64,000 nucleotides of DNA from Escherichia coli (lineage in GTDB: Bacteria; Pseudomonadota; Gammaproteobacteria; Enterobacterales; Enterobacteriaceae): NCBI RefSeq assembly GCF_050320075.1, contig NZ_CP190018.1; one strand, given 5' to 3'. The translations under genes and the position numbers were made by a program. The notes under the pieces were generated by a model. The model was not told the origin of the DNA. It saw nothing but the letters and a program-made list of their open reading frames with translations, and did not search any database. This document shows, piece by piece, positions 6,083 through 47,913 of the stretch (positions are counted from its first letter, which is position 1; each line of letters opens with the position of its first letter).

Positions 6083-6831
6083 TGTCTATTGTGATGCAGT
6101 TACAGGATGTTGCGGAATCTACCCGCCTGGGGCCGCTTTCTGGCGAGGTTCGGGCTGGGGAGATCCTGCATCTGGTGGGGCCGAACGGCGCGGGTAAGAG
6201 TACCTTACTGGCGCGAATGGCCGGAATGACCAGCGGTAAGGGAAGCATTCAGTTCGCGGGGCAACCACTGGAAGCATGGTCCGCAACAAAACTCGCGCTG
6301 CATCGCGCCTATCTTTCACAACAACAGACGCCACCGTTTGCAATGCCGGTCTGGCACTACCTGACACTGCATCAGCACGATAAAACGCGTACCGAACTAC
6401 TGAATGATGTCGCAGGGGCGCTGGCTCTTGATGACAAACTCGGACGTAGCACCAATCAACTTTCCGGCGGCGAATGGCAACGCGTACGTCTTGCTGCGGT
6501 GGTGCTGCAAATCACACCACAAGCCAATCCCGCAGGTCAATTGCTGCTTCTTGATGAGCCGATGAACAGTCTTGATGTTGCGCAACAAAGTGCGTTAGAC
6601 AAAATTCTGAGCGCGCTGTGTCAGCAAGGACTGGCGATTGTGATGAGCAGTCACGATCTCAACCATACATTGCGTCATGCGCATCGGGCATGGTTGCTAA
6701 AAGGTGGAAAAATGCTGGCCAGTGGACGCAGGGAAGAGGTGCTCACGCCGCCAAATCTGGCGCAGGCCTATGGGATGAATTTTCGCCGTCTGGATATCGA
6801 AGGTCACAGAATGCTGATTTCGACCATCTGA
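6082..6831 (+). CDS. btuD: vitamin B12 ABC transporter ATPase
   Basis: 249-aa ORF with Walker [10 protein letters not shown] and ABC signature LSGGE. Confidence 0.93.
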
Positions 6832-6908
6832 TTTCATTAGTATCTTGAAAATCGGGTAATTACGACGCTAAATTAATGCAAGAATAAAAAACAGAGGAAC
6901 CGTACGGA

Positions 6909-7373
6909 ATGCGTTTCTGCCTTATTTTGATCACAGCACTGTTTCTGGCCGGGTGTAGCCACCATAAAGCACCGCCGCCAAATGCCAGACTTTCTGATTC
7001 GATTACCGTTATTGCCGGTTTGAACGACCAGCTACAAAGCTGGCATGGCACGCCGTATCGTTATGGTGGCATGACGCGGCGCGGTGTGGACTGTTCGGGA
7101 TTTGTGGTTGTGACGATGCGCGATCGTTTCGATTTGCAGCTGCCCCGAGAAACCAAAGAACAAGCCTCTATCGGCACGCAAATTGATAAAGACGAGTTGC
7201 TGCCTGGTGACCTGGTCTTTTTCAAAACGGGTTCCGGACAAAATGGTTTGCATGTAGGTATTTACGATACCAACAACCAATTTATCCACGCCTCTACCAG
7301 CAAGGGAGTGATGCGTTCCTCACTCGATAATGTCTATTGGCAGAAAAATTTCTGGCAGGCGAGACGAATCTAG
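6909..7373 (+). CDS. nlpC: NlpC/P60 family lipoprotein (peptidoglycan endopeptidase-like)
   Basis: 154-aa ORF with lipobox LAGC and NlpC/P60 Cys-His core. Confidence 0.9.
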   Translation: MRFCLILITALFLAGCSHHKAPPPNARLSDSITVIAGLNDQLQSWHGTPYRYGGMTRRGVDCSGFVVVTMRDRFDLQLPRETKEQASIGTQIDKDELLPGDLVFFKTGSGQNGLHVGIYDTNNQFIHASTSKGVMRSSLDNVYWQKNFWQARRI

Positions 7374-7619
7374 TATGTCGAAAAATGGACGGCGATGATA
7401 CATCTCCGTCCATTTACTCCTGAATACAGTAGTATTTTACAGACAAAAATTCCGTAAATGGATTATTCGTTTATAATCAGGATAATCTAATAAAAGGACC
7501 CCTGAAAAAGTGGTTAACATGGAACAAATGAAAGTTACTCCTTCTGTAATTGTTATGTCTTATGGCCTCATCCCTTTTAGCCGGATACTGAAAAACATCC
7601 TTCGAGAGGGACGGTTACC

Positions 7620-8333
7620 ATGAAGATTTTTTTGGAGAATCTTTATCATTCTGATTGCTATTTCCTGCCGATAAGAGATAACCAGCAAGACCTTGTCGGC
7701 GTTGAGTTAATTACCCATTTCTCCAGTGAAGATGGTACGGTTCGTATCCCGACGAGTCGGGTTATAGCGCAACTTACCGAGGAGCAACATTGGCAATTAT
7801 TTTCAGAGCAGTTGGAATTACTAAAATCATGCCAACACTTTTTTATTCAACATAAACTCTTTGCTTGGCTTAATTTAACGCCACAAGTGGCTACTTTATT
7901 ATTAGACAGGGATAATTACGCAGGCGAACTATTAAAATATCCGTTTATTGAACTGTTGATTAATGAGAATTACCCGCATCTCGATGAAGGAAAAGATAAT
8001 CGCGATCTTTTTTCCTTATCGCAAATGTATCCCCTTGTGTTAGGTAATTTGGGCGCAGGCAATAGCACAATGAAAGCGGTTTTTGATGGTCTTTTCACCC
8101 GCGTCATGCTGGATAAAAGTTTTATTCAGCAACAAATCACGCATCGCTCCTTCGAACCGTTTATTCGTGCGATCCAGGCGCAAATTTCCCCATGTTGCAA
8201 TTGCATCATCGCGGGGGGCATTGATACGCCAGAAATAATGGCACAGATTACCCCCTTTGATTTCCATGCTCTCCAGGGATGCCTGTGGCCTGCCGTTCCC
8301 ATAAATCAGATAACGACGTTGGTTCAGCGATAA
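7620..8333 (+). CDS. ydiV: anti-FlhDC factor, degenerate EAL-domain protein
   Basis: 237-aa ORF, AT-rich gene, matches YdiV. Confidence 0.88.
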   Translation: MKIFLENLYHSDCYFLPIRDNQQDLVGVELITHFSSEDGTVRIPTSRVIAQLTEEQHWQLFSEQLELLKSCQHFFIQHKLFAWLNLTPQVATLLLDRDNYAGELLKYPFIELLINENYPHLDEGKDNRDLFSLSQMYPLVLGNLGAGNSTMKAVFDGLFTRVMLDKSFIQQQITHRSFEPFIRAIQAQISPCCNCIIAGGIDTPEIMAQITPFDFHALQGCLWPAVPINQITTLVQR

Positions 8334-8356
8334 CCCTCCTGTTTGCTGGTGTTTAA

Positions 8357-9832
<1,476 letters not shown>

Positions 9833-11368: not shown

Positions 11369-12194
11369 TTCGGCGGCTAAGGCCCATGATATCGAGGATC
11401 TTGGTGGCAATCTCTTCTACCGAATAATTGGTACTGTTAATCCACGGGATCTGATTTTTACGGTACAAGGCTTCTACTTCCGCGACTTCCATCCTGCACT
11501 GACGAAGCGAGGCATAGCGACTGTTCTCCCGACGTTCTTCGCGAATCGCCGCCAGACGTTCCGGGTCGATAGTCAGGCCGAACAATTTATGCTGAAGCGG
11601 TTTGAGCGACGCGGGTAGCACCAGATTATCCATGTCGTCGGCAATAAAGGGGTAGTTTGCCGCGCGGATACCAAATTGCATTGCCAGATACAGACTGGTG
11701 GGGGTTTTACCACAGCGAGAAACACCGAGCAGGATCACCTGAGCCTGATCCAGATTGCGCAACGAAATGCCGTCATCGTGGGCGAGGGTGTAATCAATCG
11801 CCGCAATGCGCGCATCATATTTATTGAGATTATTAGGGTTAAGGCCATGGGTACGATGAGCAATCGGCGTTGGATCCAGTTTCATCTCTTGTTGTAGCGG
11901 GGCAACCAGCGCCTGAACGATATCCTGGCAAAAGCCTTCACTTTGCAAGATGATGGCGCGAATCTCCGGCAACACGATGGAGTAGAAGACCAGCGGGCGC
12001 ACGCCTGTCTGGTGATAAATTGCGTCAATCTGATCCTTCACTGCCCGTGCACGGCTCTCATTTTCGACAAACGGCAGCGTAATGCTGCTGATAGTGACGG
12101 GAAATTGTGACATTACTGCGTGTCCTAATACCTCCGCAGTTATTGCCGTACCATCAGAAATATAAAAAACGTGGCGATCAACAGCATTATCCAT
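11361..12194 (-). CDS. ppsR: PEP synthase regulatory protein (bifunctional kinase/pyrophosphorylase)
   Basis: 277-aa ORF, divergent from ppsA. Confidence 0.9.
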
Positions 12195-12424
12195 TTTGTT
12201 CTTCCCGTGATGCAGACATAATTCTATGAAAGCATAAATTAAAAACGCACAGAAGCGTAGAACGTTATGTCTGGTTTATAAAATGAACCTTCAATTTTAT
12301 TTTTTATGAAAACAGCATTTCATTTTTACGGTTTCGTTTATACCGATGGTTTATGTGGAAATTGTCGAAGAGAGCAGATTTGCGCAACGCTGGGATCAGT
12401 CTTAAAAAGTAAAAAAATATATTT

Positions 12425-12440
12425 GCTTGAACGATTCACC
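12425..12440. promoter_or_regulatory. candidate Cra (FruR) site in ppsA promoter region
   Basis: GCTTGAACGATTCACC, imperfect TGAA...TTCA palindrome about 90 bp upstream of ppsA ATG; half-site spacing is off consensus. Confidence 0.3.
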
Positions 12441-12526
12441 GTTTTTTTCATCCGGTTAAATATGCAAAGATAAATGCGCAGAAATGTGTTTCTCAAACCG
12501 TTCATTTATCACAAAAGGATTGTTCG

Positions 12527-14905
12527 ATGTCCAACAATGGCTCGTCACCGCTGGTGCTTTGGTATAACCAACTCGGCATGAATGATGTAGACAGGGTTGG
12601 GGGCAAAAATGCCTCCCTGGGTGAAATGATTACTAACCTTTCCGGAATGGGTGTTTCCGTTCCGAATGGTTTCGCCACAACCGCCGACGCGTTTAACCAG
12701 TTTCTGGACCAAAGCGGCGTAAACCAGCGCATTTATGAACTGCTGGATAAAACGGATATTGACGATGTTACCCAGCTTGCGAAAGCGGGCGCGCAAATCC
12801 GCCAGTGGATTATCGACACTCCCTTCCAGCCTGAGCTGGAAAACGCCATCCGCGAAGCCTATGCACAGCTTTCCGCCGATGACGAAAACGCCTCGTTTGC
12901 GGTGCGTTCCTCCGCTACTGCAGAAGATATGCCGGACGCTTCTTTTGCCGGTCAGCAGGAAACTTTCCTCAACGTTCAGGGTTTTGACGCCGTTCTCGTG
13001 GCAGTGAAACATGTATTTGCTTCTCTGTTTAACGATCGCGCCATCTCTTATCGTGTGCACCAGGGTTACGATCACCGTGGCGTGGCGCTCTCCGCCGGTG
13101 TTCAGCGGATGGTGCGCTCCGACCTCGCATCTTCTGGCGTGATGTTCTCCATTGATACCGAATCCGGCTTTGACCAGGTGGTGTTTATCACTTCCGCATG
13201 GGGCCTTGGTGAAATGGTCGTGCAGGGTGCGGTTAACCCGGATGAGTTTTACGTGCACAAACCGACACTGGCGGCGAATCGCCCGGCTATCGTGCGCCGC
13301 ACCATGGGGTCGAAAAAAATCCGCATGGTCTACGCGCCGACCCAGGAGCACGGCAAGCAGGTTAAAATCGAAGACGTACCGCAGGAACAGCGTGACATCT
13401 TCTCGCTGACCAACGAAGAAGTGCAGGAACTGGCAAAACAGGCCGTACAAATTGAGAAACACTACGGTCGCCCAATGGATATTGAGTGGGCGAAAGATGG
13501 CCACACCGGCAAACTGTTCATTGTGCAGGCGCGCCCGGAAACCGTGCGCTCACGCGGTCAGGTCATGGAGCGTTATACGCTGCATTCACAGGGTAAGATT
13601 ATCGCCGAAGGCCGTGCTATCGGTCATCGCATCGGCGCGGGTCCGGTGAAAGTCATCCATGACATCAGCGAAATGAACCGCATCGAACCTGGCGACGTGC
13701 TGGTTACTGACATGACTGACCCGGACTGGGAACCGATCATGAAGAAGGCATCTGCCATCGTCACCAATCGTGGCGGTCGTACCTGTCACGCGGCGATCAT
13801 CGCTCGTGAACTCGGCATTCCGGCGGTAGTGGGCTGTGGTGATGCAACAGAACGGATGAAAGACGGTGAGAACGTCACTGTTTCTTGTGCCGAAGGTGAT
13901 ACCGGTTATGTCTATGCGGAGTTGCTGGAATTTAGCGTGAAAAGCTCCAGCGTAGAAACGATGCCTGATCTGCCGTTGAAGGTGATGATGAACGTCGGTA
14001 ACCCGGACCGTGCTTTCGACTTCGCCTGCCTGCCGAACGAAGGCGTGGGCCTTGCGCGTCTGGAATTTATCATCAACCGTATGATTGGCGTCCACCCACG
14101 CGCACTGCTTGAGTTTGACGATCAGGAACCGCAGTTGCAAAACGAAATCCGCGAGATGATGAAAGGTTTTGATTCTCCGCGTGAATTTTACGTTGGGCGT
14201 CTGACTGAAGGGATCGCGACGCTGGGTGCCGCGTTTTATCCGAAGCGCGTCATTGTCCGTCTCTCTGATTTTAAATCGAACGAATATGCCAACCTGGTCG
14301 GTGGTGAGCGTTACGAGCCAGATGAAGAGAACCCGATGCTCGGCTTCCGTGGCGCGGGCCGCTATGTTTCCGACAGCTTCCGCGACTGCTTTGCGCTGGA
14401 GTGTGAAGCAGTGAAACGTGTGCGCAGCGACATGGGACTGACCAACGTTGAGATCATGATCCCGTTCGTGCGTACCGTAGATCAGGCGAAAGCGGTGGTT
14501 GACGAATTGGCGCGTCAGGGGCTGAAACGTGGTGAGAACGGGCTGAAAATCATCATGATGTGTGAAATTCCGTCCAACGCCTTGCTGGCAGAGCAGTTCC
14601 TCGAATATTTCGACGGCTTCTCAATTGGCTCAAACGACATGACACAGCTGGCGCTCGGTCTGGACCGTGACTCCGGAGTGGTGTCTGAACTGTTCGATGA
14701 GCGCAACGATGCGGTGAAAGCACTGCTGTCGATGGCGATTCGTGCCGCGAAGAAACAGGGCAAATATGTCGGGATTTGCGGTCAGGGCCCGTCCGACCAC
14801 GAAGACTTTGCCGCATGGTTGATGGAAGAAGGGATCGATAGCCTGTCTCTGAACCCGGATACCGTGGTGCAAACCTGGTTAAGCCTGGCTGAACTGAAGA
14901 AATAA
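12527..14905 (+). CDS. ppsA: phosphoenolpyruvate synthase
   Basis: 792-aa ORF with PEP-utilising enzyme domains. Confidence 0.95.
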
Positions 14906-20337: not shown

Positions 20338-21249
20338 ATGTATCAACGCTGTTTTGATAACGCCAGCGAAACGCTGTTTGTCGCCGGTAAAACGCCACGG
20401 CTTTCACGTTTTGCATTTAGCGATGATCCAAAATGGGAGTCCGGACATCACGTTCATGACAATGAAACCGAGTTGATTTACGTCAAGAAAGGGGTAGCAA
20501 GGTTTACCATCGATTCTTCGTTATATGTCGCGCACGCCGATGACATTGTGGTGATAGAACGTGGCAGGCTGCATGCGGTGGCCTCTGACGTTAACGATCC
20601 GGCAACGACGTGTACCTGTGCGCTGTACGGCTTTCAGTTTCAGGGGGCTGAGGAAAATCAGCTACTGCAACCGCATTCTTGCCCGGTAATTGCCGCAGGG
20701 CAGGGAAAAGAAGTTATTAAAACCTTATTTAATGAGCTAAGTGTGATTTTGCCGCAAAGTAAAAATAGCCAAACATCTTCGTTATGGGACGCATTTGCCT
20801 ATACGTTAGCAATTCTTTACTATGAAAACTTTAAAAATGCTTATCGTTCGGAGCAGGGATATATTAAAAAAGATGTTCTGATAAAAGATATTCTTTTCTA
20901 TCTGAATAATAACTATCGCGAAAAAATCACTTTAGAGCAGTTATCGAAAAAGTTTCGTGCCAGCGTCAGTTATATTTGCCATGAATTTACCAAAGAGTAT
21001 CGTATTTCCCCTATTAACTATGTTATTCAACGGCGTATGACGGAAGCGAAATGGTCACTCACTAATACTGAATTATCACAGGCAGAGATCTCCTGGCGTG
21101 TGGGTTATGAAAATGTCGATCACTTTGCCAAACTGTTTTTGCGCCATGTCGGCTGTTCGCCCAGCGATTACCGCAGGCAATTTAAAAACTGTTTTGCGGA
21201 ACAAGAAATCTTATCTGAATTTCCTCAACCGGTAAGTCTTGCCGGATAA
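20338..21249 (+). CDS. ydiP: AraC-family transcriptional regulator
   Basis: 303-aa ORF with C-terminal AraC HTH; divergent from ydiQ. Confidence 0.85.
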   Translation: MYQRCFDNASETLFVAGKTPRLSRFAFSDDPKWESGHHVHDNETELIYVKKGVARFTIDSSLYVAHADDIVVIERGRLHAVASDVNDPATTCTCALYGFQFQGAEENQLLQPHSCPVIAAGQGKEVIKTLFNELSVILPQSKNSQTSSLWDAFAYTLAILYYENFKNAYRSEQGYIKKDVLIKDILFYLNNNYREKITLEQLSKKFRASVSYICHEFTKEYRISPINYVIQRRMTEAKWSLTNTELSQAEISWRVGYENVDHFAKLFLRHVGCSPSDYRRQFKNCFAEQEILSEFPQPVSLAG

Positions 21250-25863: not shown

Positions 25864-27129
25864 TTAACCTCTATGCTTAATTGTGTTTAACCGGGTGCTA
25901 AATTTACGCTCGCCAAACCGCACATCATTTTCAGGAATAATGAAAACGCGGTAATAGCGGATAAAGACAATAATTGCGGTAATCAGGGCCAGCAGCGCGA
26001 AAGTAAAATCGAGAGCAATGATATATTGCAGGCCGATGTTCGACAGATAACCGGTAATCAGCGGAATAACAAAATTAGCCAGTCCACCCATCATCATATA
26101 TATACTGGTGACTTTGGCTTTGCTTTTTGGGAAAAACTCTGACATGACCGAAACGCCGAGCTGTAAAATGCCGCCAGCTGCTGAGAAACCGATAACAAAG
26201 GCTCCGGCATTACACACCAATGGAGAAGGGTACAGGTAGATAATGGCAGCTGTTATTGTTGCCAGTGCAGAGTTAAATACATTAGCCCAGATGGGCCGGA
26301 CCATTTTTTTCAGCAGTGCGGCAAAAATAAAGACACAGACCAACGAGCCCATACTGTAATAAGAGATGGTTTTTAATGCCTCAGCTTCTGACATACCAGC
26401 AAAAGCCATCGCATATTTGGGCATCCACACCACAATCACATAAAAGGTCGAGAATGCGGCTACACCGAACAGTACTGATGAAACACCTTCCAGCCAGACT
26501 AACGGTTTGCTGTTCATTTGCGGTAATTCATTAGCTACGCTGGCGTCCACCAACTGGCTGGGGAATTTGCTTTTCAACAGCATCAGTGTGATCAGTACAA
26601 ACAGAATACCCGGAATAATCAGCCCATAGCCGTACCAGATGTTATTGAGCAACATATAGCTCACCAGCATTGGGTAGAACATTTGCCCGAATGACACCAT
26701 CGCTTTAACCAGTATGACCGCCGAACCAGAGGCTTTCGGAAAGCATTCCATGAGCGCGGGGTAGCCACCCGTATCCAGCGCTGAGTTAGCGATACCTACG
26801 CACACTGCCAGACAGTAGGCGAGAGTTAAATTCGGGCAAGCGGGAATACCAAAGAAGAATAGCAGATACATTATTACTGCCATTAATATCACCGCCCGAC
26901 GACCAAACTTATCGGAGATCACACCGAAGAATAAAATACTGATCAATCGCCCCAAACCGATACCGGAAATTAAATAGGCAATGCCCGCGTTGTCAGTGGA
27001 AAACTTTTCTGCCAGAGATGACATATTTTGGGCAAGCGTAATAACACTAATGCCGTGCAGGAAATAGCTGAAGTAAATACAAAGAACAGCCAGGATAAAT
27101 GGCGTGCTGAAAGCCTTATTTTGAGACAT
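25864..27129 (-). CDS. ydiN: MFS transporter
   Basis: polytopic membrane ORF; ATG at 27129 (MSQNKAF); GTG two codons upstream also possible. Confidence 0.85.
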
Positions 27130-27355
27130 TTTCACAGCTCCTTGCTGAAAGATAATTTCGTTACCGTACGTATTGTTCTCCGACGGTTCACATAATTACT
27201 ATACTGAAGATGATTTTCCCTGGGTACATGGCATAAAGTTTATGTTTCCAGGAATATTGCATGTCATAGTTTGTTTTTTATCGCGATTTTCGTTAGTTGG
27301 CGCAGAAAGAGTTATTTATCCGTAAGATCTTGCATGACCTGAAAAGAATATTGCA

Positions 27356-28570
27356 TTACCCACCCGGAGCGACATTTTCCTTTAGCGAGTGATGCCGCGT
27401 TTCTTTGCGGCTGCGTAAGCCGATAAACAGTGCCAGTAAAAAGCCGATGGCAGCGATGGCGGTATCGAACCACATAATATCGGCAATACTTCTTTGGGAC
27501 AGATGAGCCGTAATCAACGGAATAGTAAAGGTCGCAATACTGCCCGCACTGTAATAGATCCCTGTAGCTTTACCTTTAGCGTAGGGGAAACGTTCAGCCA
27601 TTAATGTCAGGCCAATTTGCACAACACCTCCAGCAGAGGTAAAACCAATGACAAAAGCAAATATTATCACCACATAAAATGTGGGATGCAGGCAGACGGT
27701 AAACAGAGCAGTAAATGAGATAAAGGTGTACAGCATGAGTAATGTTGTTGCTCGAACGGTATTACGAATGAGTGGAGCGGTAATAAATACACAAAGCAGC
27801 GAACCCACGGTGTAGATACTGAGTAGTTTGATCGACATAGTGTATGACATGCCTGCAACAAATTGTCCGTACTGTGCCAGCCACTGGCTAACCAGATAAA
27901 ACGTTGCCATTGAGATATAGCCATATAAGGTATAACTGGCTAAATCGATTATTGAGCAGCGATGTTCCGTAGAGCTGGTGGTTTTCTTTATGACAGGTAA
28001 GCGACGACCCGGATGGGGTGGGAACGTACAACGGTATAAAAACAGAGCGTTAATAAACATAATGCCTGCGGCAATCATAAAGGACCAACCGAACCACAGT
28101 TCAGCCCACACTAACAGGCTAATGATTAGCGGTAATAAAAATTGCCCGCTGGAAACAAATGCTTTAATTAAAATATTGGCTGTACCCGGTGAGCGTGGAA
28201 AAGCTTCCATCAAACTGGGATAGGTGCCTGCATCGAGAAAACTGTTTGCCATTCCCGCCAGAAAGCCAAAAACATAAGCGATAATGATGTTATTGGTGTG
28301 CAGGATGCCAAAAAAGAAGGCCATATAGCAACACATCCCGAGCATGATAAAAGGGCGGCGACCAAAGCGATCGGATAATAATCCTGCAAAAAGCAAGACA
28401 CTTAATCGACCAATACCCAGCGATGAGATAACTATTGAGACGCCTGCGGCATTAGTCTGCCAAAGCGTCTCCAGCGAGGCCATATTCAGGCTCATCAAAA
28501 TGACGCCCATACCATGCACCAGGTAATTAAAATACAACCCCAGTGCGGTAGGGAAATAGGGATTTTTCAT
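27356..28570 (-). CDS. ydiM: MFS transporter
   Basis: 404-aa polytopic membrane ORF. Confidence 0.85.
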   Translation of the reverse strand: MKNPYFPTALGLYFNYLVHGMGVILMSLNMASLETLWQTNAAGVSIVISSLGIGRLSVLLFAGLLSDRFGRRPFIMLGMCCYMAFFFGILHTNNIIIAYVFGFLAGMANSFLDAGTYPSLMEAFPRSPGTANILIKAFVSSGQFLLPLIISLLVWAELWFGWSFMIAAGIMFINALFLYRCTFPPHPGRRLPVIKKTTSSTEHRCSIIDLASYTLYGYISMATFYLVSQWLAQYGQFVAGMSYTMSIKLLSIYTVGSLLCVFITAPLIRNTVRATTLLMLYTFISFTALFTVCLHPTFYVVIIFAFVIGFTSAGGVVQIGLTLMAERFPYAKGKATGIYYSAGSIATFTIPLITAHLSQRSIADIMWFDTAIAAIGFLLALFIGLRSRKETRHHSLKENVAPGG

Positions 28571-28668
28571 AGGTTCTACTTAGCAAAGGTGCTTTAAAAA
28601 GTGAAGCGATGTTGTGTCAGCATCCGTTCATTATTGTTGTAACAACGACAATTCCTTTCTTTGGAAAA

Positions 28669-29025
28669 TTAACAAAGGCGCTCCAGATCGTGTGCATATA
28701 ATTCAGCGGCTACCGATTGATAGATCTTCCAGTCAATAAAATTGCCATCAGGGTAGACTTGTTGAAACGCGGTTAAGTCGGGGAAAAAACGCATGGTGTT
28801 GTTGCCGATGCGGTTATTTATTTTCTCTATGATGGCATGAAGATGTTTTTTTCTTTGCTGACGCATAGCCAACAGTTGCTCGACTACACGATCAGGAATG
28901 GCGTATTTGCCATTTTCCCACTGACGCCAGCTTTCACTGTCACCGGTCTGGGCAATCCAGGTCGCGCATTCATCAATAGTCATGGCAAAAATATGGCGGA
29001 GTGCCTGGAGTTCATAAGCGTTCAT
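28669..29025 (-). CDS. ydiL: DUF1870 HTH-like protein
   Basis: start at ATG 29025 (MNAYELQALRHIF, 118 aa); track ORF begins at upstream TTG. Confidence 0.8.
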   Translation of the reverse strand: MNAYELQALRHIFAMTIDECATWIAQTGDSESWRQWENGKYAIPDRVVEQLLAMRQQRKKHLHAIIEKINNRIGNNTMRFFPDLTAFQQVYPDGNFIDWKIYQSVAAELYAHDLERLC

Positions 29026-29163
29026 CGTGTAATGGCTGCATGAAATAAACAATAAAATATAAATAACATTATCAGCCTGCTGACGGCTTGAAGAGAGTCA
29101 CAGTATCTTGTGCAACATTATTGGAAAGCGTGAGGGGCGAGGTAGCGAAGCGGAAAAATGTTA

Positions 29164-29268
29164 AAAAAAAGCCCATCGTGGGAGATGGGCAAAGACTACA
29201 CACAGCAATTCGTTGTTTCACTCAGGGGATTTCCATGCTTATAAATCAATATGTTGATTTATAACCGT
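29164..29268 (-). ncRNA. rprA: RprA small RNA (RpoS translational activator)
   Basis: minus-strand sequence ACGGTTATAAATCAACATATTGATTTATAAGCATGGAAATCCCCTGAGTG...CCCATCTCCCACGATGGGCTTTTTTT matches my recollection of rprA, including the terminator. Confidence 0.85.
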
Positions 29269-29453
29269 GAGCTAATAGTAGGCATACGGACTTTTTGCGT
29301 CGATCAGATTCGTCTCATTAGTTTAAAAACTGTAAAGAATTTGCGACAGGTACTACCAGCTGAATGGCGGTAAGCAGGAAAATATGGGGAAGAGCAAGCA
29401 AATATCAATTAGCAGGGGTTAACAATCAGGCGGCAGAGCCGCCTGATGAGAAA

Positions 29454-30566
29454 TTACTTATTCGGTTTCTCGATTTCGCCAAGTTCTTCGAGAACTTCTT
29501 CCGGTTGGTCAGTCGGCGGTGGGACTTCTTCCACCCACGCGGCAAAAAGACGCCAGGAAACGGCTAACAGAACCGGACCAATAAACAGGCCGATCATCCC
29601 GAAAGCAATCAAACCACCAATAACGCCAGAGAGAATCAGGATCAGCGGTAAATCGGCACCCATGCGAATTAACATTGGGCGGATGACGTTATCCAGCGTG
29701 CCAACCACACCGCTCCACACTAACAATACCGTTCCCCAGGTGGTATCGCCAGTCCAGTAGAGCCAGATAATCGCCGGAATCAGTACCGGCAACGGTCCAA
29801 GCTGGACAAGGCAGGAGAGGATCATTAACACCGTGAGCAAAGTTGCATAAGGTACGCCGGATACGGCGAGGCCGATACCGCCAAGCACTGCCTGTACTAA
29901 CGCTGTCACCACAACACCCAGCGCCACCGCGCGGATAGCTTGTGCCGCCAGCAGCACGGCGGCATCTCCACGAACGCCTGCCAGACGGGTTGCAAAATGG
30001 CGAATGCCTTGCGCCACTTGTTCACCGCGCCAGTACAGCAGGGCGCTGAAGAGAAGCATCAGCGCACAATGCACCATAAAGCGCCCGATATGCGCCGCCT
30101 GCCCAACGAACCAGGTGGTGGTGGTGCCAATATAAGGACGGACTTTTGCCATGATCGCCGTCCCCCCCATATCCAGCAAGTTGTGCCAGCCTGCATACAG
30201 CTTCGCGCCAATCACCGGAATGGTATTAAGCCACGCCAGATCGGGTAACGTCATGTCACCGCTGGAAATGGCTTTAATTAGCGGGCCGCTGCCGTCGACG
30301 ATACTGTTAACCAGCAAGGCAATAGGGATGATAAACACCATCACTAATAACAGCGTCATCACCAGAACGGCGAGAGAGCGGCGACCAAACATGATCTTTT
30401 GCAAACGTAACAATACCGGCCAGGTGGCGATAACCACCGTACCAGCCCATGCAAAGCCGAGAATAAAGGGTTGTACAATCCACAGACATGCCACAATCAT
30501 GATGGCTAAAAAAAGCACCGAAAGCAGAATTTGTGCGACATCCCTGGGCTGACGAACATTTACCAT
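29454..30566 (-). CDS. ydiK: AI-2E/PerM family membrane transporter
   Basis: 370-aa polytopic membrane ORF. Confidence 0.88.
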   Translation of the reverse strand: MVNVRQPRDVAQILLSVLFLAIMIVACLWIVQPFILGFAWAGTVVIATWPVLLRLQKIMFGRRSLAVLVMTLLLVMVFIIPIALLVNSIVDGSGPLIKAISSGDMTLPDLAWLNTIPVIGAKLYAGWHNLLDMGGTAIMAKVRPYIGTTTTWFVGQAAHIGRFMVHCALMLLFSALLYWRGEQVAQGIRHFATRLAGVRGDAAVLLAAQAIRAVALGVVVTALVQAVLGGIGLAVSGVPYATLLTVLMILSCLVQLGPLPVLIPAIIWLYWTGDTTWGTVLLVWSGVVGTLDNVIRPMLIRMGADLPLILILSGVIGGLIAFGMIGLFIGPVLLAVSWRLFAAWVEEVPPPTDQPEEVLEELGEIEKPNK

Positions 30567-42529: not shown

Positions 42530-43942
42530 TTACAGGACGTGAACAGATGCGGTGTTAGTAGTGCCGCTCGGTACCAGTGCACCAGAAACCATAACTACGA
42601 CGTCACCTTTGTGTGCCAGACCGCTCTGCAGAGCCAGTTCTTTACCCAGACGGTAGAAATCATCAGTAGAAGTGATCTCTTTAACCAGCTGCGGCACAAC
42701 GCCTTTGCTCAGTACCAACTGATGAGCCGTTTTTTCGTTGGTGGTCAGTGCCAGGATGGTGGCATCCGGGAAGTATTTACGTACTGCGCGAGCAGATTTA
42801 CCGCCCTGGGTAGCAACCACGATCAGCGGGGCATCCAGTTTTTCAGCAGTTTCAACGGCACCACGGCATACCGCTTCGGTAATGCGCAGTTTACGGTTGT
42901 CATTGTTGAACTCGAGACGGCTGTTCATCACGCGGTCGGTACGTTCGCAGATGGTCGCCATGATAGAAACCGCTTCCAGCGGGTATTTACCTTTTGCGGA
43001 TTCACCAGACAGCATCACTGCGTCAGTACCGTCGAGGATGGCGTTTGCAACGTCACCGGCTTCTGCGCGAGTCGGGCGTGGGTTTTTGATCATGGAATCC
43101 AGCATCTGGGTCGCAGTGATAACGACTTTACGTGCACGGATACATTTTTCGATCATCATCTTCTGGGCGAAGATAACTTCTTCTACCGGGATTTCTACAC
43201 CCAGGTCGCCACGCGCAACCATGATGCCGTCAGAGGCTTCGAGGATTTCGTCGAAGTTGTTGAGGCCTTCCTGGTTTTCGATTTTGGAGATGATGTGGAT
43301 GTTTTCGCCGCCGTGCGCTTTCAGGTGCTCACGGATTTCGATAACGTCAGAACGCTTACGAATAAAGGAAGCAGCGACAAAGTCTACGCCTTGTTCGCAA
43401 CCAAAGATCAGGTCCTGTTTGTCTTTTTCAGCCAGTGCTGGCAGGGCAATGGAAACGCCAGGCAGGTTCACACCTTTGTTTTCACCCAGGTCGCCGTTGT
43501 TCAGCACTTTACAGATAACTTTGTTACCTTCAATGGCAGTAACTTCCATACCGATCAGACCATCGTCAACCAGTACGGTGTTGCCAACAGACAGGTCAGT
43601 AGTGAAACCTTCATACGTTACCGCAACCATTTCGCTGTTGCCGATAACAGATTTATCAGTGGTGAAAGTAAAGGTCTGACCCGCTTTCAGAGAAACGTCG
43701 TTACCGCCTTCCAGTTTCATGGTGCGGATTTCCGGACCTTTGGTATCAAGCAGGATAGCGGCGGTTTTACCAGTTTTGCTCATCACGTTGCGCAGATTCT
43801 GAATGCGCTGACCGTGTTCTGCATAGTCACCATGAGAGAAGTTCAGACGCATAACGTTCATGCCAGCGTCCAGCATTTTAGCTAACATCTCTTCAGATTC
43901 GGTTTTCGGTCCGATGGTGCAAACAATTTTGGTCTTTTTCAT
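42530..43942 (-). CDS. pykF: pyruvate kinase I
   Basis: 470-aa product from ATG 43942 ([19 protein letters not shown]); track ORF has an in-frame 72-codon upstream extension. Confidence 0.95.
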
Positions 43943-44498
43943 GACAGTCTTAGTCTTTAAGTTGAGAAGGATGGGAGAAACTTGCTTTCTGGGCGCACTG
44001 CCGGAAAGCGAATCCGGTATTACGAAAGTGGTGGTGCCTCGCTCTAAGGATAGGTGACATCGAAAAAGCGTGCAGAGGAATGTGTGCTTGTGTCTCAGCC
44101 CAACGTGAGTGCCTGTTTTTGAGTCGTTGAGTTCTACAGTCCAAAGTGCTGAAACCATTCAAGAGTCAATTGGCGCGCATTATACGCTGAAATTAATCCA
44201 AAAGGAAAACAAAAACAGCGTTTCAAAAAATATACAACTTGTAAGACAATAAATTGTTATCAAAGATTTAACGTTCCAGGGAAAAGGTTACGCAAAAACT
44301 TCGCTGTTTGCGCAACGTCTGGTGCCGGGGTTGTCACTGTGAAGATAAGTGAAAGTTCATCCGGTGTATAAATACATCATCGCTCAATTGCTACAGTTAA
44401 AATAATTTATCGCGTTATTTGTCTGATTTTGTTTGATTTTTGTCTAATTGGTTAGATTGATATATGCTGATAGTTGGCATGATAAATAGGTATAAAGA

Positions 44499-44708
44499 AT
44501 GGGAAATCGGACAAAAGAGGATGAACTGTACCGAGAAATGTGCAGAGTTGTCGGTAAAGTTGTGCTGGAAATGCGCGATCTGGGGCAGGAACCAAAGCAT
44601 ATTGTTATCGCAGGCGTATTACGTACAGCATTAGCCAATAAACGCATTCAGCGCAGTGAGCTGGAAAAGCAGGCGATGGAAACCGTCATTAACGCACTGG
44701 TAAAATGA
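44499..44708 (+). CDS. ydhZ: small fumarase D-like protein
   Basis: 69-aa ORF matching YdhZ/FumD. Confidence 0.8.
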   Translation: MGNRTKEDELYREMCRVVGKVVLEMRDLGQEPKHIVIAGVLRTALANKRIQRSELEKQAMETVINALVK

Positions 44709-44948
44709 CCATTCAGGATGAGGCGATAAGCTTCATCCTGATATTCTTGCTTCAGTTGCGGTCCAGTTAATCATTCTAAATAACAACTGCTGAAATTATA
44801 CGAATTTCGGTATGTATTTTAATTTATAGCGATAATGTTATTTTTATTTTCTGCAATGAACGTCACAAATAATTGTCGCTTAAGTTAAATTTATTTCAAA
44901 TGATAATAAATATCAGTTCACTTATAATTTCTTGCTTTGTAATTTTAA

Positions 44949-44962
44949 TTGATAACGATCAA
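44949..44962. promoter_or_regulatory. FNR-type site (TTGAT-N4-ATCAA) upstream of ydhY
   Basis: perfect TTGATAACGATCAA in the AT-rich ydhZ-ydhY intergenic region; ydhY operon is reported FNR-activated. Confidence 0.55.
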
Positions 44963-45163
44963 TGTTAAGGGCTCAGAATAATCACATTATTTTTTCTCCT
45001 AATCATAAAGGATTAGTTTATCGGCGTTAAATCTTTTCTCATACACTATCGGGTTAGGGAAAATATCTGGTGTTGGGGACAGAGTCAGCAGCGTATTAGT
45101 TGAATGCTTAATATCAGACTGCTGAATTGTCAGCACTGTGTTTGCGAAGAGGATGCGAAATAA

Positions 45164-47913
<2,750 letters not shown>

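Follow-up and report, generated by a model that had tools for sequence, protein, structure and literature searches.

Ancient residence of the AT-rich flagellar brake gene ydiV in Escherichia coli, and a conserved upstream open reading frame in its leader

The gene ydiV (rflP), which encodes the anti-FlhD4C2 factor of Escherichia coli, lies in a 64-kb stretch of chromosome (henceforth the window) that is collinear with 1.73-1.80 Mb of the K-12 MG1655 chromosome in reverse orientation. An earlier, sequence-only reading of the window had taken ydiV and the 246 bp before it for an AT-rich island of horizontal origin, possibly silenced by the nucleoid protein H-NS, with a degenerate EAL domain. We find the island AT-rich and the domain degenerate, but the gene no newcomer. 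In the joint reading that we consider probable, ydiV is a native and ancient gene, encodes a pseudo-enzyme, sits at an AT-rich equilibrium as a target of H-NS, and is expressed by way of a conserved upstream open reading frame (uORF) in its leader. The AT-richness and the enzymatic deadness of this well-studied flagellar brake gene are already published; the uORF is the sole potentially new item of our analysis.

Base composition and descent of ydiV

The segment is chromosomal ydiV of E. coli plus its promoter and leader, in the gene order btuC-btuE-btuD-nlpC-ydiV-selO with all genes on the + strand. The encoded protein is identical at 229 of 237 residues (97%) to the crystallised E. coli YdiV (PDB 3TLQ; 4ES4 for the complex with FlhD), and the RefSeq counterpart in K-12 is rflP (b1707), labelled 'anti-FlhDC factor RflP', which shares the nlpC-ydiV-selO context, the length of the protein and the FlhD-contact residues F155, F168, F181 and A184. 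The gene had thus been named correctly from sequence alone. Relative to K-12 YdiV there are eight substitutions (V23D, E97D, N122D, G129D, L130F, V135M, A204P and L207M), none of which touches helix alpha8 or the conserved motifs of the interface; the uORF region shows no difference, and three bases differ within the nlpC-ydiV spacer.

The G+C content (GC) of positions 7380-8333 is 0.410, against 0.500 for the window, and a value this low is reached by only 1.6% of the 954-bp windows in the 64 kb (z = -2.4). Both ydiV and the spacer before it (Table 1) lie well below nlpC (0.497), selO (0.523) and btuD (0.548), as the sequence-only reading had asserted. Among 52 genes called from open reading frames (ORFs), ydiV has the lowest GC (z = -2.6) and the lowest GC at second codon positions (GC2, 0.33), while GC at third positions (GC3, 0.43) is nearly the lowest (z = -2.0); GC is depressed at all three codon positions. 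The protein reflects this composition: residues with AT-rich codons (FYMINK) make up 0.27 of it, and those with GC-rich codons (GARP) 0.19, compared with 0.24-0.30 elsewhere. A scan of GC and codon usage thus gives a divided answer, in that the GC is atypical but the codon-usage log-likelihood, scored against the window's own usage, is ordinary (z = -0.5); the anomaly is therefore compositional, with no exotic codon dialect behind it.

GC as low or lower recurs at ydiP, at ydiL-ydiM-ydiN and in the fumD-pykF spacer, and ydiV is thus a compositional outlier that is not unique in the window. The individual patches are ydiP (encoding an AraC-type regulator, GC 0.429; 20338-21249), ydiL-ydiM-ydiN (26800-29500), the fumD/ynhH/pykF upstream region (43500-45800, minimum 0.356) and the ppsR-ppsA spacer (12000-12600).

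Presence and position speak clearly about descent. Of 5426 complete genomes of E. coli, 5409 carry the gene. In a synteny sample of one genome per species, which yielded 80 loci from 15 named genera of Enterobacteriaceae, selO lies directly downstream of ydiV in the same orientation at all 80, and nlpC and then btuD lie upstream, again in the same orientation, at every locus with enough upstream sequence. E. fergusonii has the same neighbourhood, and relatives of ydiV occupy the same junction in Dickeya and Symbiopectobacterium (Pectobacteriaceae) and in Duffyella (Erwiniaceae). Named matches to the YdiV profile are confined to Enterobacterales. A search with SelO homologues for an outgroup with an empty nlpC-selO junction returned close, ydiV-bearing relatives only.

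The divergence of YdiV follows that of its neighbours, its pairwise distances rising with those of SelO and NlpC (Spearman 0.50 and 0.60, respectively). For all pairs taken together the median YdiV/SelO distance ratio is 2.15, and measured from the window sequence the ratio ranges from 2.2 to 4.8; one frameshifted assembly (L074) gives 1.24. An allelic replacement in E. fergusonii, whose YdiV is only 49% identical, was considered and rejected: its SelO and NlpC are also divergent, and its ratio of 2.96 is typical. We found no tRNA gene between window positions 1 and 20000, no flanking direct repeats and no mobility gene bordering ydiV. Nor is ydiV itself carried on any true plasmid, the four records matching at >=95% identity being mislabelled chromosome-size records or chromosomal fragments, including one of 420 kb. 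We conclude that ydiV has stood between nlpC and selO since before the Enterobacteriaceae, Erwiniaceae and Pectobacteriaceae split, an ancient resident with no recent import. The horizontal origin proposed for it accordingly finds no support as a recent event, be it in distribution and synteny, in divergence that scales with the flanks, or in the borders of the gene.

The low GC is as widely shared as the position. GC of ydiV is below that of selO in 76 of 76 genomes (mean difference 0.105; GC3 difference 0.16) and below that of nlpC in 73 of 76, the nlpC-ydiV spacer averaging 0.39, and the offset is also present in Dickeya, Duffyella and Symbiopectobacterium. Regressed on selO GC3, ydiV GC3 follows with a slope of 0.61 (r = 0.69) and a constant offset. 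Synonymous divergence (dS) of ydiV exceeds 2.5 between E. coli and either Salmonella or Citrobacter and is thus saturated. Because synonymous sites are saturated and GC3 tracks the host, the low GC3 must be a maintained equilibrium and not a donor relic: the AT-richness is a gene-specific GC equilibrium in every lineage, about 10 points below the flanks and 16 at third positions. Nonsynonymous divergence (dN) is about three times as high as in selO. The dN/dS values are 0.10-0.15 for ydiV and 0.04-0.05 for selO, a two- to threefold excess, and the excess over nlpC reaches about tenfold. The rate of evolution of the gene is 2-5 times that of its neighbours, and selection on it is weaker yet clearly purifying.

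Several observations concern particular lineages or relatives. In NZ_CP042899.1 (E. coli), otherwise 100% identical over the segment, the insertion sequence (IS) IS1 lies inside ydiV, and truncated YdiV forms of 130-206 residues (P0010, P0020, P0028 and P0049) account for hundreds of member sequences, which suggests that E. coli populations have repeatedly lost or shortened the flagellar brake. In E. fergusonii (L084 and L085), btuE is missing between btuC and btuD, and the divergence of SelO (17%) and NlpC (10%) from E. coli is unusual for a congener. An lplA-like lipoate-protein ligase gene stands between nlpC and ydiV in Dickeya (L086) and Symbiopectobacterium (L088), with btuCED-nlpC-ydiV-selO otherwise kept. 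One orthologue of 50% identity (P0061) bears the NCBI label 'Vagococcus sp. WN89Y', which probably denotes a mislabelled enterobacterial genome. Finally, a distant, stand-alone EAL-only gene, with a product 27-29% identical to YdiV, occurs on some 250 plasmids of enterobacteria, of which many are conjugative.

The degenerate EAL domain and the FlhD interface

YdiV retains an EAL fold but has lost the catalytic residues of a cyclic di-GMP (c-di-GMP) phosphodiesterase, and is thus a pseudo-enzyme. The Pfam EAL model (PF00563) matches it only marginally (34.2 bits, cut-off 31.3), although the same domain is found in all 20 orthologues that we compared (best E-value 5e-13), and the NCBIfam PdeH equivalog scores 49.5 bits, far below its cut-off of 190. 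Aligned with the active K-12 enzymes PdeH and PdeL, YdiV has G142-N143 in place of the metal-binding DD pair (DDFGTG), M163 in place of the catalytic Lys, G199 in place of the general-base Glu of EGVE and H33 in place of the Arg of EALxR, whereas E29, N85 and Q219 are retained. Across the YdiV stretch 'IELLINE', PdeH and PdeL fall two residues out of register with one another, leaving either E111 or E116 as the candidate Glu of ExxE. The active-site comparison hence bears out the earlier statement that catalytic residues are missing, and it agrees with the structural study, in which eight of ten catalytic residues were lost, c-di-GMP was neither bound nor hydrolysed, and the E. coli protein adopted a TIM-barrel-like EAL fold (PMC3510510). 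From 1.84 billion representatives, a profile built from the 20 orthologues retrieves only 317 clusters (E<=1e-3); with so few, the subfamily has evidently drifted almost beyond the reach of ordinary EAL domains.

What has been kept is the surface that meets FlhD. The four contact residues named above are invariant in the 20 orthologues (interface residues and helix alpha8, 176-192, as listed in PMC3510510). By the published evidence, YdiV acts on the flagellar master activator FlhD4C2 by blocking and destabilising it: it binds FlhD, dislodges FlhD4C2 from DNA and directs it to ClpXP (PMC3510510, PMC5425062, PMC7157525). It thereby shapes motility heterogeneity in Salmonella and in pathogenic E. 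coli, and ydiV mutants of ST131 and pathogenic E. coli are hypermotile. In K-12, ydiV has been reported to be poorly translated (PMC7157525).

Set beside the active EAL phosphodiesterases (PdeH/YhjH, PdeL/YahA, RocR and TBD1265), YdiV belongs to the same domain family, and E29, N85 and Q219 align, but it inhibits motility where they promote it, and their DD, Lys and Glu are replaced. It shares with STM1697 (PDB 5HXG) and the plasmid-borne EAL-only proteins the subclass of inactive, stand-alone EAL domains that act on FlhD4C2. Those proteins are paralogues of about 27-30% identity, encoded elsewhere in the genome or on plasmids; the plasmid EAL-only subclass is the mobile part of the family, while ydiV itself is not mobile. 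The Salmonella protein (YdiV, also STM1344, CdgR or RflP) is an orthologue, with the same flanks (L019 and L089), a likewise AT-rich gene and the same action on FlhD4C2, although it is only 52% identical to that of E. coli.

H-NS, the ydiV promoter and the upstream open reading frame

Published K-12 coordinates on U00096.2 were carried over to U00096.3 with an offset that we take to be +1977. This offset agrees with the label 'ydiV' given to the sigma-70 peak at 1790227 in PMC3688515. The MG1655 H-NS regions of Myers et al., determined by chromatin immunoprecipitation (ChIP) with microarray detection (ChIP-chip), extend over 1788463-1790797 in anaerobic and 1788851-1791070 in aerobic cells (U00096.2; PMC3688515 Table S3) and convert to window positions 6866-9200 and 6593-8812, with ydiV at their centre. 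The neighbouring nlpC was likewise marked as H-NS-bound by Higashi et al. (PMC4720273 Table S2). In Salmonella, H-NS footprints and silences the ydiV promoter, and CadC displaces it (PMC9728131). On the strength of the published ChIP data, H-NS likely binds ydiV in E. coli; silencing is demonstrated in Salmonella and is a possibility in E. coli. A scan of the window for the H-NS motif TCGATAAATT with <=2 mismatches returned 87 matches where 67 were expected, the local excess being that of AT-richness alone.

The ydiV promoter coincides with K-12 sigma-70 peaks from ChIP with sequencing (ChIP-seq) at 1790227 and 1790238 (U00096.2), or about 7425-7436 in the window. A scan with the sigma-70 consensus called no promoter in the nlpC-ydiV spacer. 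The conserved block GTTTATAATCAGGATAA holds a -10-like TATAAT hexamer, a candidate promoter element that the scan missed because its -35 partner is poor; in 21 loci of Escherichia, Citrobacter and Salmonella it lies 54-57 nt upstream of the uORF ATG. Just 3' of it, at 7478-7485 and about 45-50 nt before the uORF start, is a conserved CAGGATAA block, which occurs in Escherichia, Citrobacter, Enterobacter, Lelliottia and Pseudenterobacter and could be an operator or the region of the transcription start site (TSS). The distal promoter of Salmonella differs: its CadC/H-NS footprint TCATCATATATAATGATAT and its TSS at -230 have no E. coli counterpart.

Between this promoter region and ydiV lies the uORF, MKVTPSVIVMSYGLIPFSRILKNILREGRLP, whose 31 codons end in a TGA that overlaps the ydiV start as ATGA. 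E. coli has a second in-frame ATG at 7519, which would extend the frame to 34 codons; in K-12 the uORF occupies complement ~1792018-1792113, or reaches 1792122 from the upstream ATG. At 66 of the 80 loci, an ATG exactly 92 nt 5' of the ydiV start is followed by an open frame and the ATGA overlap, and at several others the uORF ends as TGATG or TAATG; the Salmonella uORF, of 30 codons, overlaps ydiV as TAATG. The uORF frame is free of stops at 75 of 80 loci; read in the other two frames, these bases are open at 3 and 7 of 80 and contain on average 2.85 and 1.57 stops. Markov simulations predict 11 of 80 open frames, a figure that falls to 0.23 of 80 once the ATG is also required at its exact place. 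The ydiV gene has A as its base +4 in 79 of 80 loci, which preserves the overlap. Of 65 loci, 59 have a 4-mer resembling a Shine-Dalgarno (SD) sequence between -15 and -4 relative to the uORF ATG (background 11%), and 57 have AAA or AAG as the second codon. The SD-like element of ydiV itself, GAGAGGGA, lies inside the last uORF codons; a GGGGC/GGGAC block is kept at about -16 to -12 of ydiV across 24 aligned genera, and the distance of about 10-12 nt from this GGG(G/A)C to the ATG is long. The Salmonella TSS, mapped at -230 by 5'-RACE, places the uORF within the mRNA.

The peptide shows none of this constancy. The ratio of nonsynonymous to synonymous differences (pN/pS) of the uORF is 0.98, without an excess at third positions, against 0.20 for the first 25 codons of ydiV, and its 'synonymous' divergence is 0.15 against 0.45 for ydiV. 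Judged by these substitution patterns, the uORF peptide evolves neutrally and without constraint. RefSeq does not annotate the uORF in K-12, though other small upstream ORFs that have been validated are included, for example ynhH ahead of pykF, and databases hold the 34-residue form solely as an unnamed predicted protein. A full-text literature search, which did not cover Wada et al. 2011 and 2012, found no paper that connects ydiV with a uORF or leader peptide.

We tentatively propose, at somewhat less than even confidence, that the 246-bp spacer is a leader whose unannotated uORF, conserved in position, length, frame, SD and overlap in at least 14 genera of Enterobacteriaceae, gates YdiV synthesis. 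Expression would be routed through a long leader carrying a 31-codon uORF with its own SD, and ribosomes that finish the uORF would deliver, or gate, initiation at the poorly spaced ribosome-binding site of ydiV by translational coupling, whose sign may be positive or negative. Coupling by stop-start overlap is exemplified by the trp operon with its AUGA and UGAUG junctions, which the uORF resembles in having its own SD and a stop that overlaps the downstream start (ATGA or TGATG). It differs from such systems and from bacterial leader peptides in that the putatively coupled upstream cistron is a 31-codon ORF with a neutrally evolving peptide, and neither an attenuator-type terminator nor a conserved RNA switch was found in the ydiV leader. 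In the joint reading, the AT-rich state would make ydiV a natural target of H-NS, and it would be at least partly maintained because it is advantageous to express the flagellar brake at a low basal level gated by nucleoid proteins; passive drift towards AT, in a gene that is both weakly expressed and weakly constrained, probably contributes.

A number of findings weigh against this reading. The E. coli ydiV promoter was not shifted by H-NS in one gel-shift assay (PMC9728131), the K-12 ChIP-chip regions form a permissive set, many of them lying near ydiV (PMC3688515), and a sigma-70 peak at the promoter means that the gene is not fully silent. The possible silencing suggested from sequence alone is thus made plausible as regards occupancy by the K-12 ChIP-chip regions and the bound nlpC, but meets opposition in the gel shift and in sigma-70 at the promoter. 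For the uORF, older predictions put the E. coli TSS near -80, within the uORF; Dickeya, Duffyella and Symbiopectobacterium lack the uORF, and E. albertii has a shortened one; and it is not among the entries listed in the accessible parts of the Stringer 2021 and Venturini 2020 supplements. The nlpC-ydiV leader has no conserved RNA structure by RNAalifold over 24 genera, and its single-sequence fold is no more stable than shuffles (z = -0.06). Selected (regulatory) and passive AT-richness, moreover, are both live explanations of the offset. No credible Rfam family occurs in the leader, and an RNA-switch interpretation was rejected since Rfam, fold stability and RNAalifold are all null.

How, then, did ydiV come by its composition? 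The supposition that it is a horizontally acquired AT-rich islet of E. coli, quieted by H-NS as foreign DNA, would fit the atypical composition, the H-NS ChIP enrichment over the gene and the presence of the distant EAL-only subclass on 250 plasmids (PMC10333796). It is nevertheless highly improbable, given the 5409 genomes that carry ydiV, its fixed position and orientation at 80 of 80 loci and in two further families, its divergence in step with the flanks, the absence of tRNA, integrase, IS and direct repeats at its borders, and its own absence from true plasmids; conserved synteny by itself refutes recent acquisition. An entry in the distant past, once, at the nlpC-selO junction and at or before the base of the Enterobacterales, would leave the AT-richness as an unameliorated donor signature. 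A narrow family of 317 clusters, whose named matches are confined to Enterobacterales, fits a single origin by duplication or transfer, and PdeH is the nearest active relative (PMC10333796), but synonymous sites are saturated between genera and GC3 co-varies with the host at a slope of 0.61, and we regard a surviving donor signature as quite unlikely. A more serious contender, though still on the unlikely side, holds that the low GC is nothing but the AT-biased neutral equilibrium of a weakly expressed and weakly constrained gene, with H-NS binding as a by-product. The elevated dN/dS relative to selO and nlpC, a GC3 of 0.43 close to the spacer GC of 0.37-0.39 and tracking the host with a constant offset, the common truncated alleles together with the one broken by IS1, and the poor translation of ydiV in K-12 (PMC7157525) all accord with it. 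Against it stand GC1 and GC2, which are also low through a FYMINK-rich, GARP-poor protein under purifying selection, the functional H-NS control in Salmonella (PMC9728131), and the hypermotility of ydiV mutants in ST131 and pathogenic E. coli, which shows that the gene is used.

The uORF has a rival explanation of its own, namely that it is untranslated and that its open frame is a side-effect of nucleotide conservation in a promoter, operator or RNA element. The pN/pS near unity without third-position excess agrees with this, as does a 'synonymous' divergence below that of ydiV, a mark of nucleotide-level constraint, and so does the missing entry in the accessible small-ORF and profiling supplements. 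We think it unlikely all the same: the uORF frame is open at 75 loci where the others are open at 3 and 7 and simulations give 11, or 0.23 with the ATG; the SD-like motif is kept far beyond its background, and the AAA/AAG second codon and the A at +4 of ydiV are kept as well; and no conserved RNA structure was found that would explain the constraint.

The joint reading carries a caution, in that low GC and H-NS binding do not imply recent horizontal transfer; ydiV is an AT-rich, H-NS-bound gene inherited vertically in three enterobacterial families with a stable compositional offset. In Salmonella and pathogenic E. coli, the amount of YdiV determines what share of the cells is flagellated, which has consequences for immune evasion. 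Since 2011-2012 the post-transcriptional control of YdiV has been unclear, and a coupled uORF is a simple and testable hypothesis for it. If correct, the uORF would be the missing post-transcriptional step in the nutritional control of Salmonella YdiV, and it would explain why ydiV in laboratory E. coli is 'transcribed but poorly translated'.

Feature coordinates and flanking hairpins

The elements discussed above are collected in Table 1, together with two flanking features.

Table 1. Features of the ydiV segment, in window coordinates
Feature	Position	Strand	Description
nlpC-ydiV intergenic region	7374..7619	+	246 bp, GC 0.374; ydiV promoter and 5' leader
Hairpin directly after the nlpC stop	7383..7415	+	Inverted repeat, 15-nt arms, 93% complementary, 3-nt loop
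TATAAT, -10-like hexamer in conserved block GTTTATAATCAGGATAA	7472..7477	+	Candidate ydiV promoter element
Conserved upstream ORF MKVTPSVIVMSYGLIPFSRILKNILREGRLP	7528..7623	+	31 codons plus stop; TGA 7621-7623 overlaps ydiV ATG 7620-7622 (ATGA)
GAGAGGGA, SD-like element of ydiV	7604..7611	+	Inside last uORF codons, ~10 nt from ATG
ydiV (rflP) coding sequence	7620..8333	+	237 aa; degenerate stand-alone EAL domain, anti-FlhD4C2 factor; GC 0.422
ydiV-selO spacer	8334..8395	+	62 bp; highly conserved across genera

The hairpin after nlpC is terminator-like but lacks a clear T-run and was not called by the terminator scan. A hairpin occupies this position in all aligned Escherichia, with a different one in E. 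fergusonii.

In the ydiV-selO spacer, an inverted repeat pairs 8335-8352 with 8374-8391; its 3' arm holds the selO SD, which is predicted to pair with CCTCCTG just after the ydiV stop. Across genera, 74.5% of this hairpin is paired against 38-54% in slid controls, with no covariation beyond shuffles, and it is no more than a candidate structure. The spacer also contains promoter-like blocks, TGTTTA (8350-8355) and TACACT (8373-8378) separated by a 17-nt gap, and the K-12 sigma-70 peak at 1789284 (U00096.2) falls within it.

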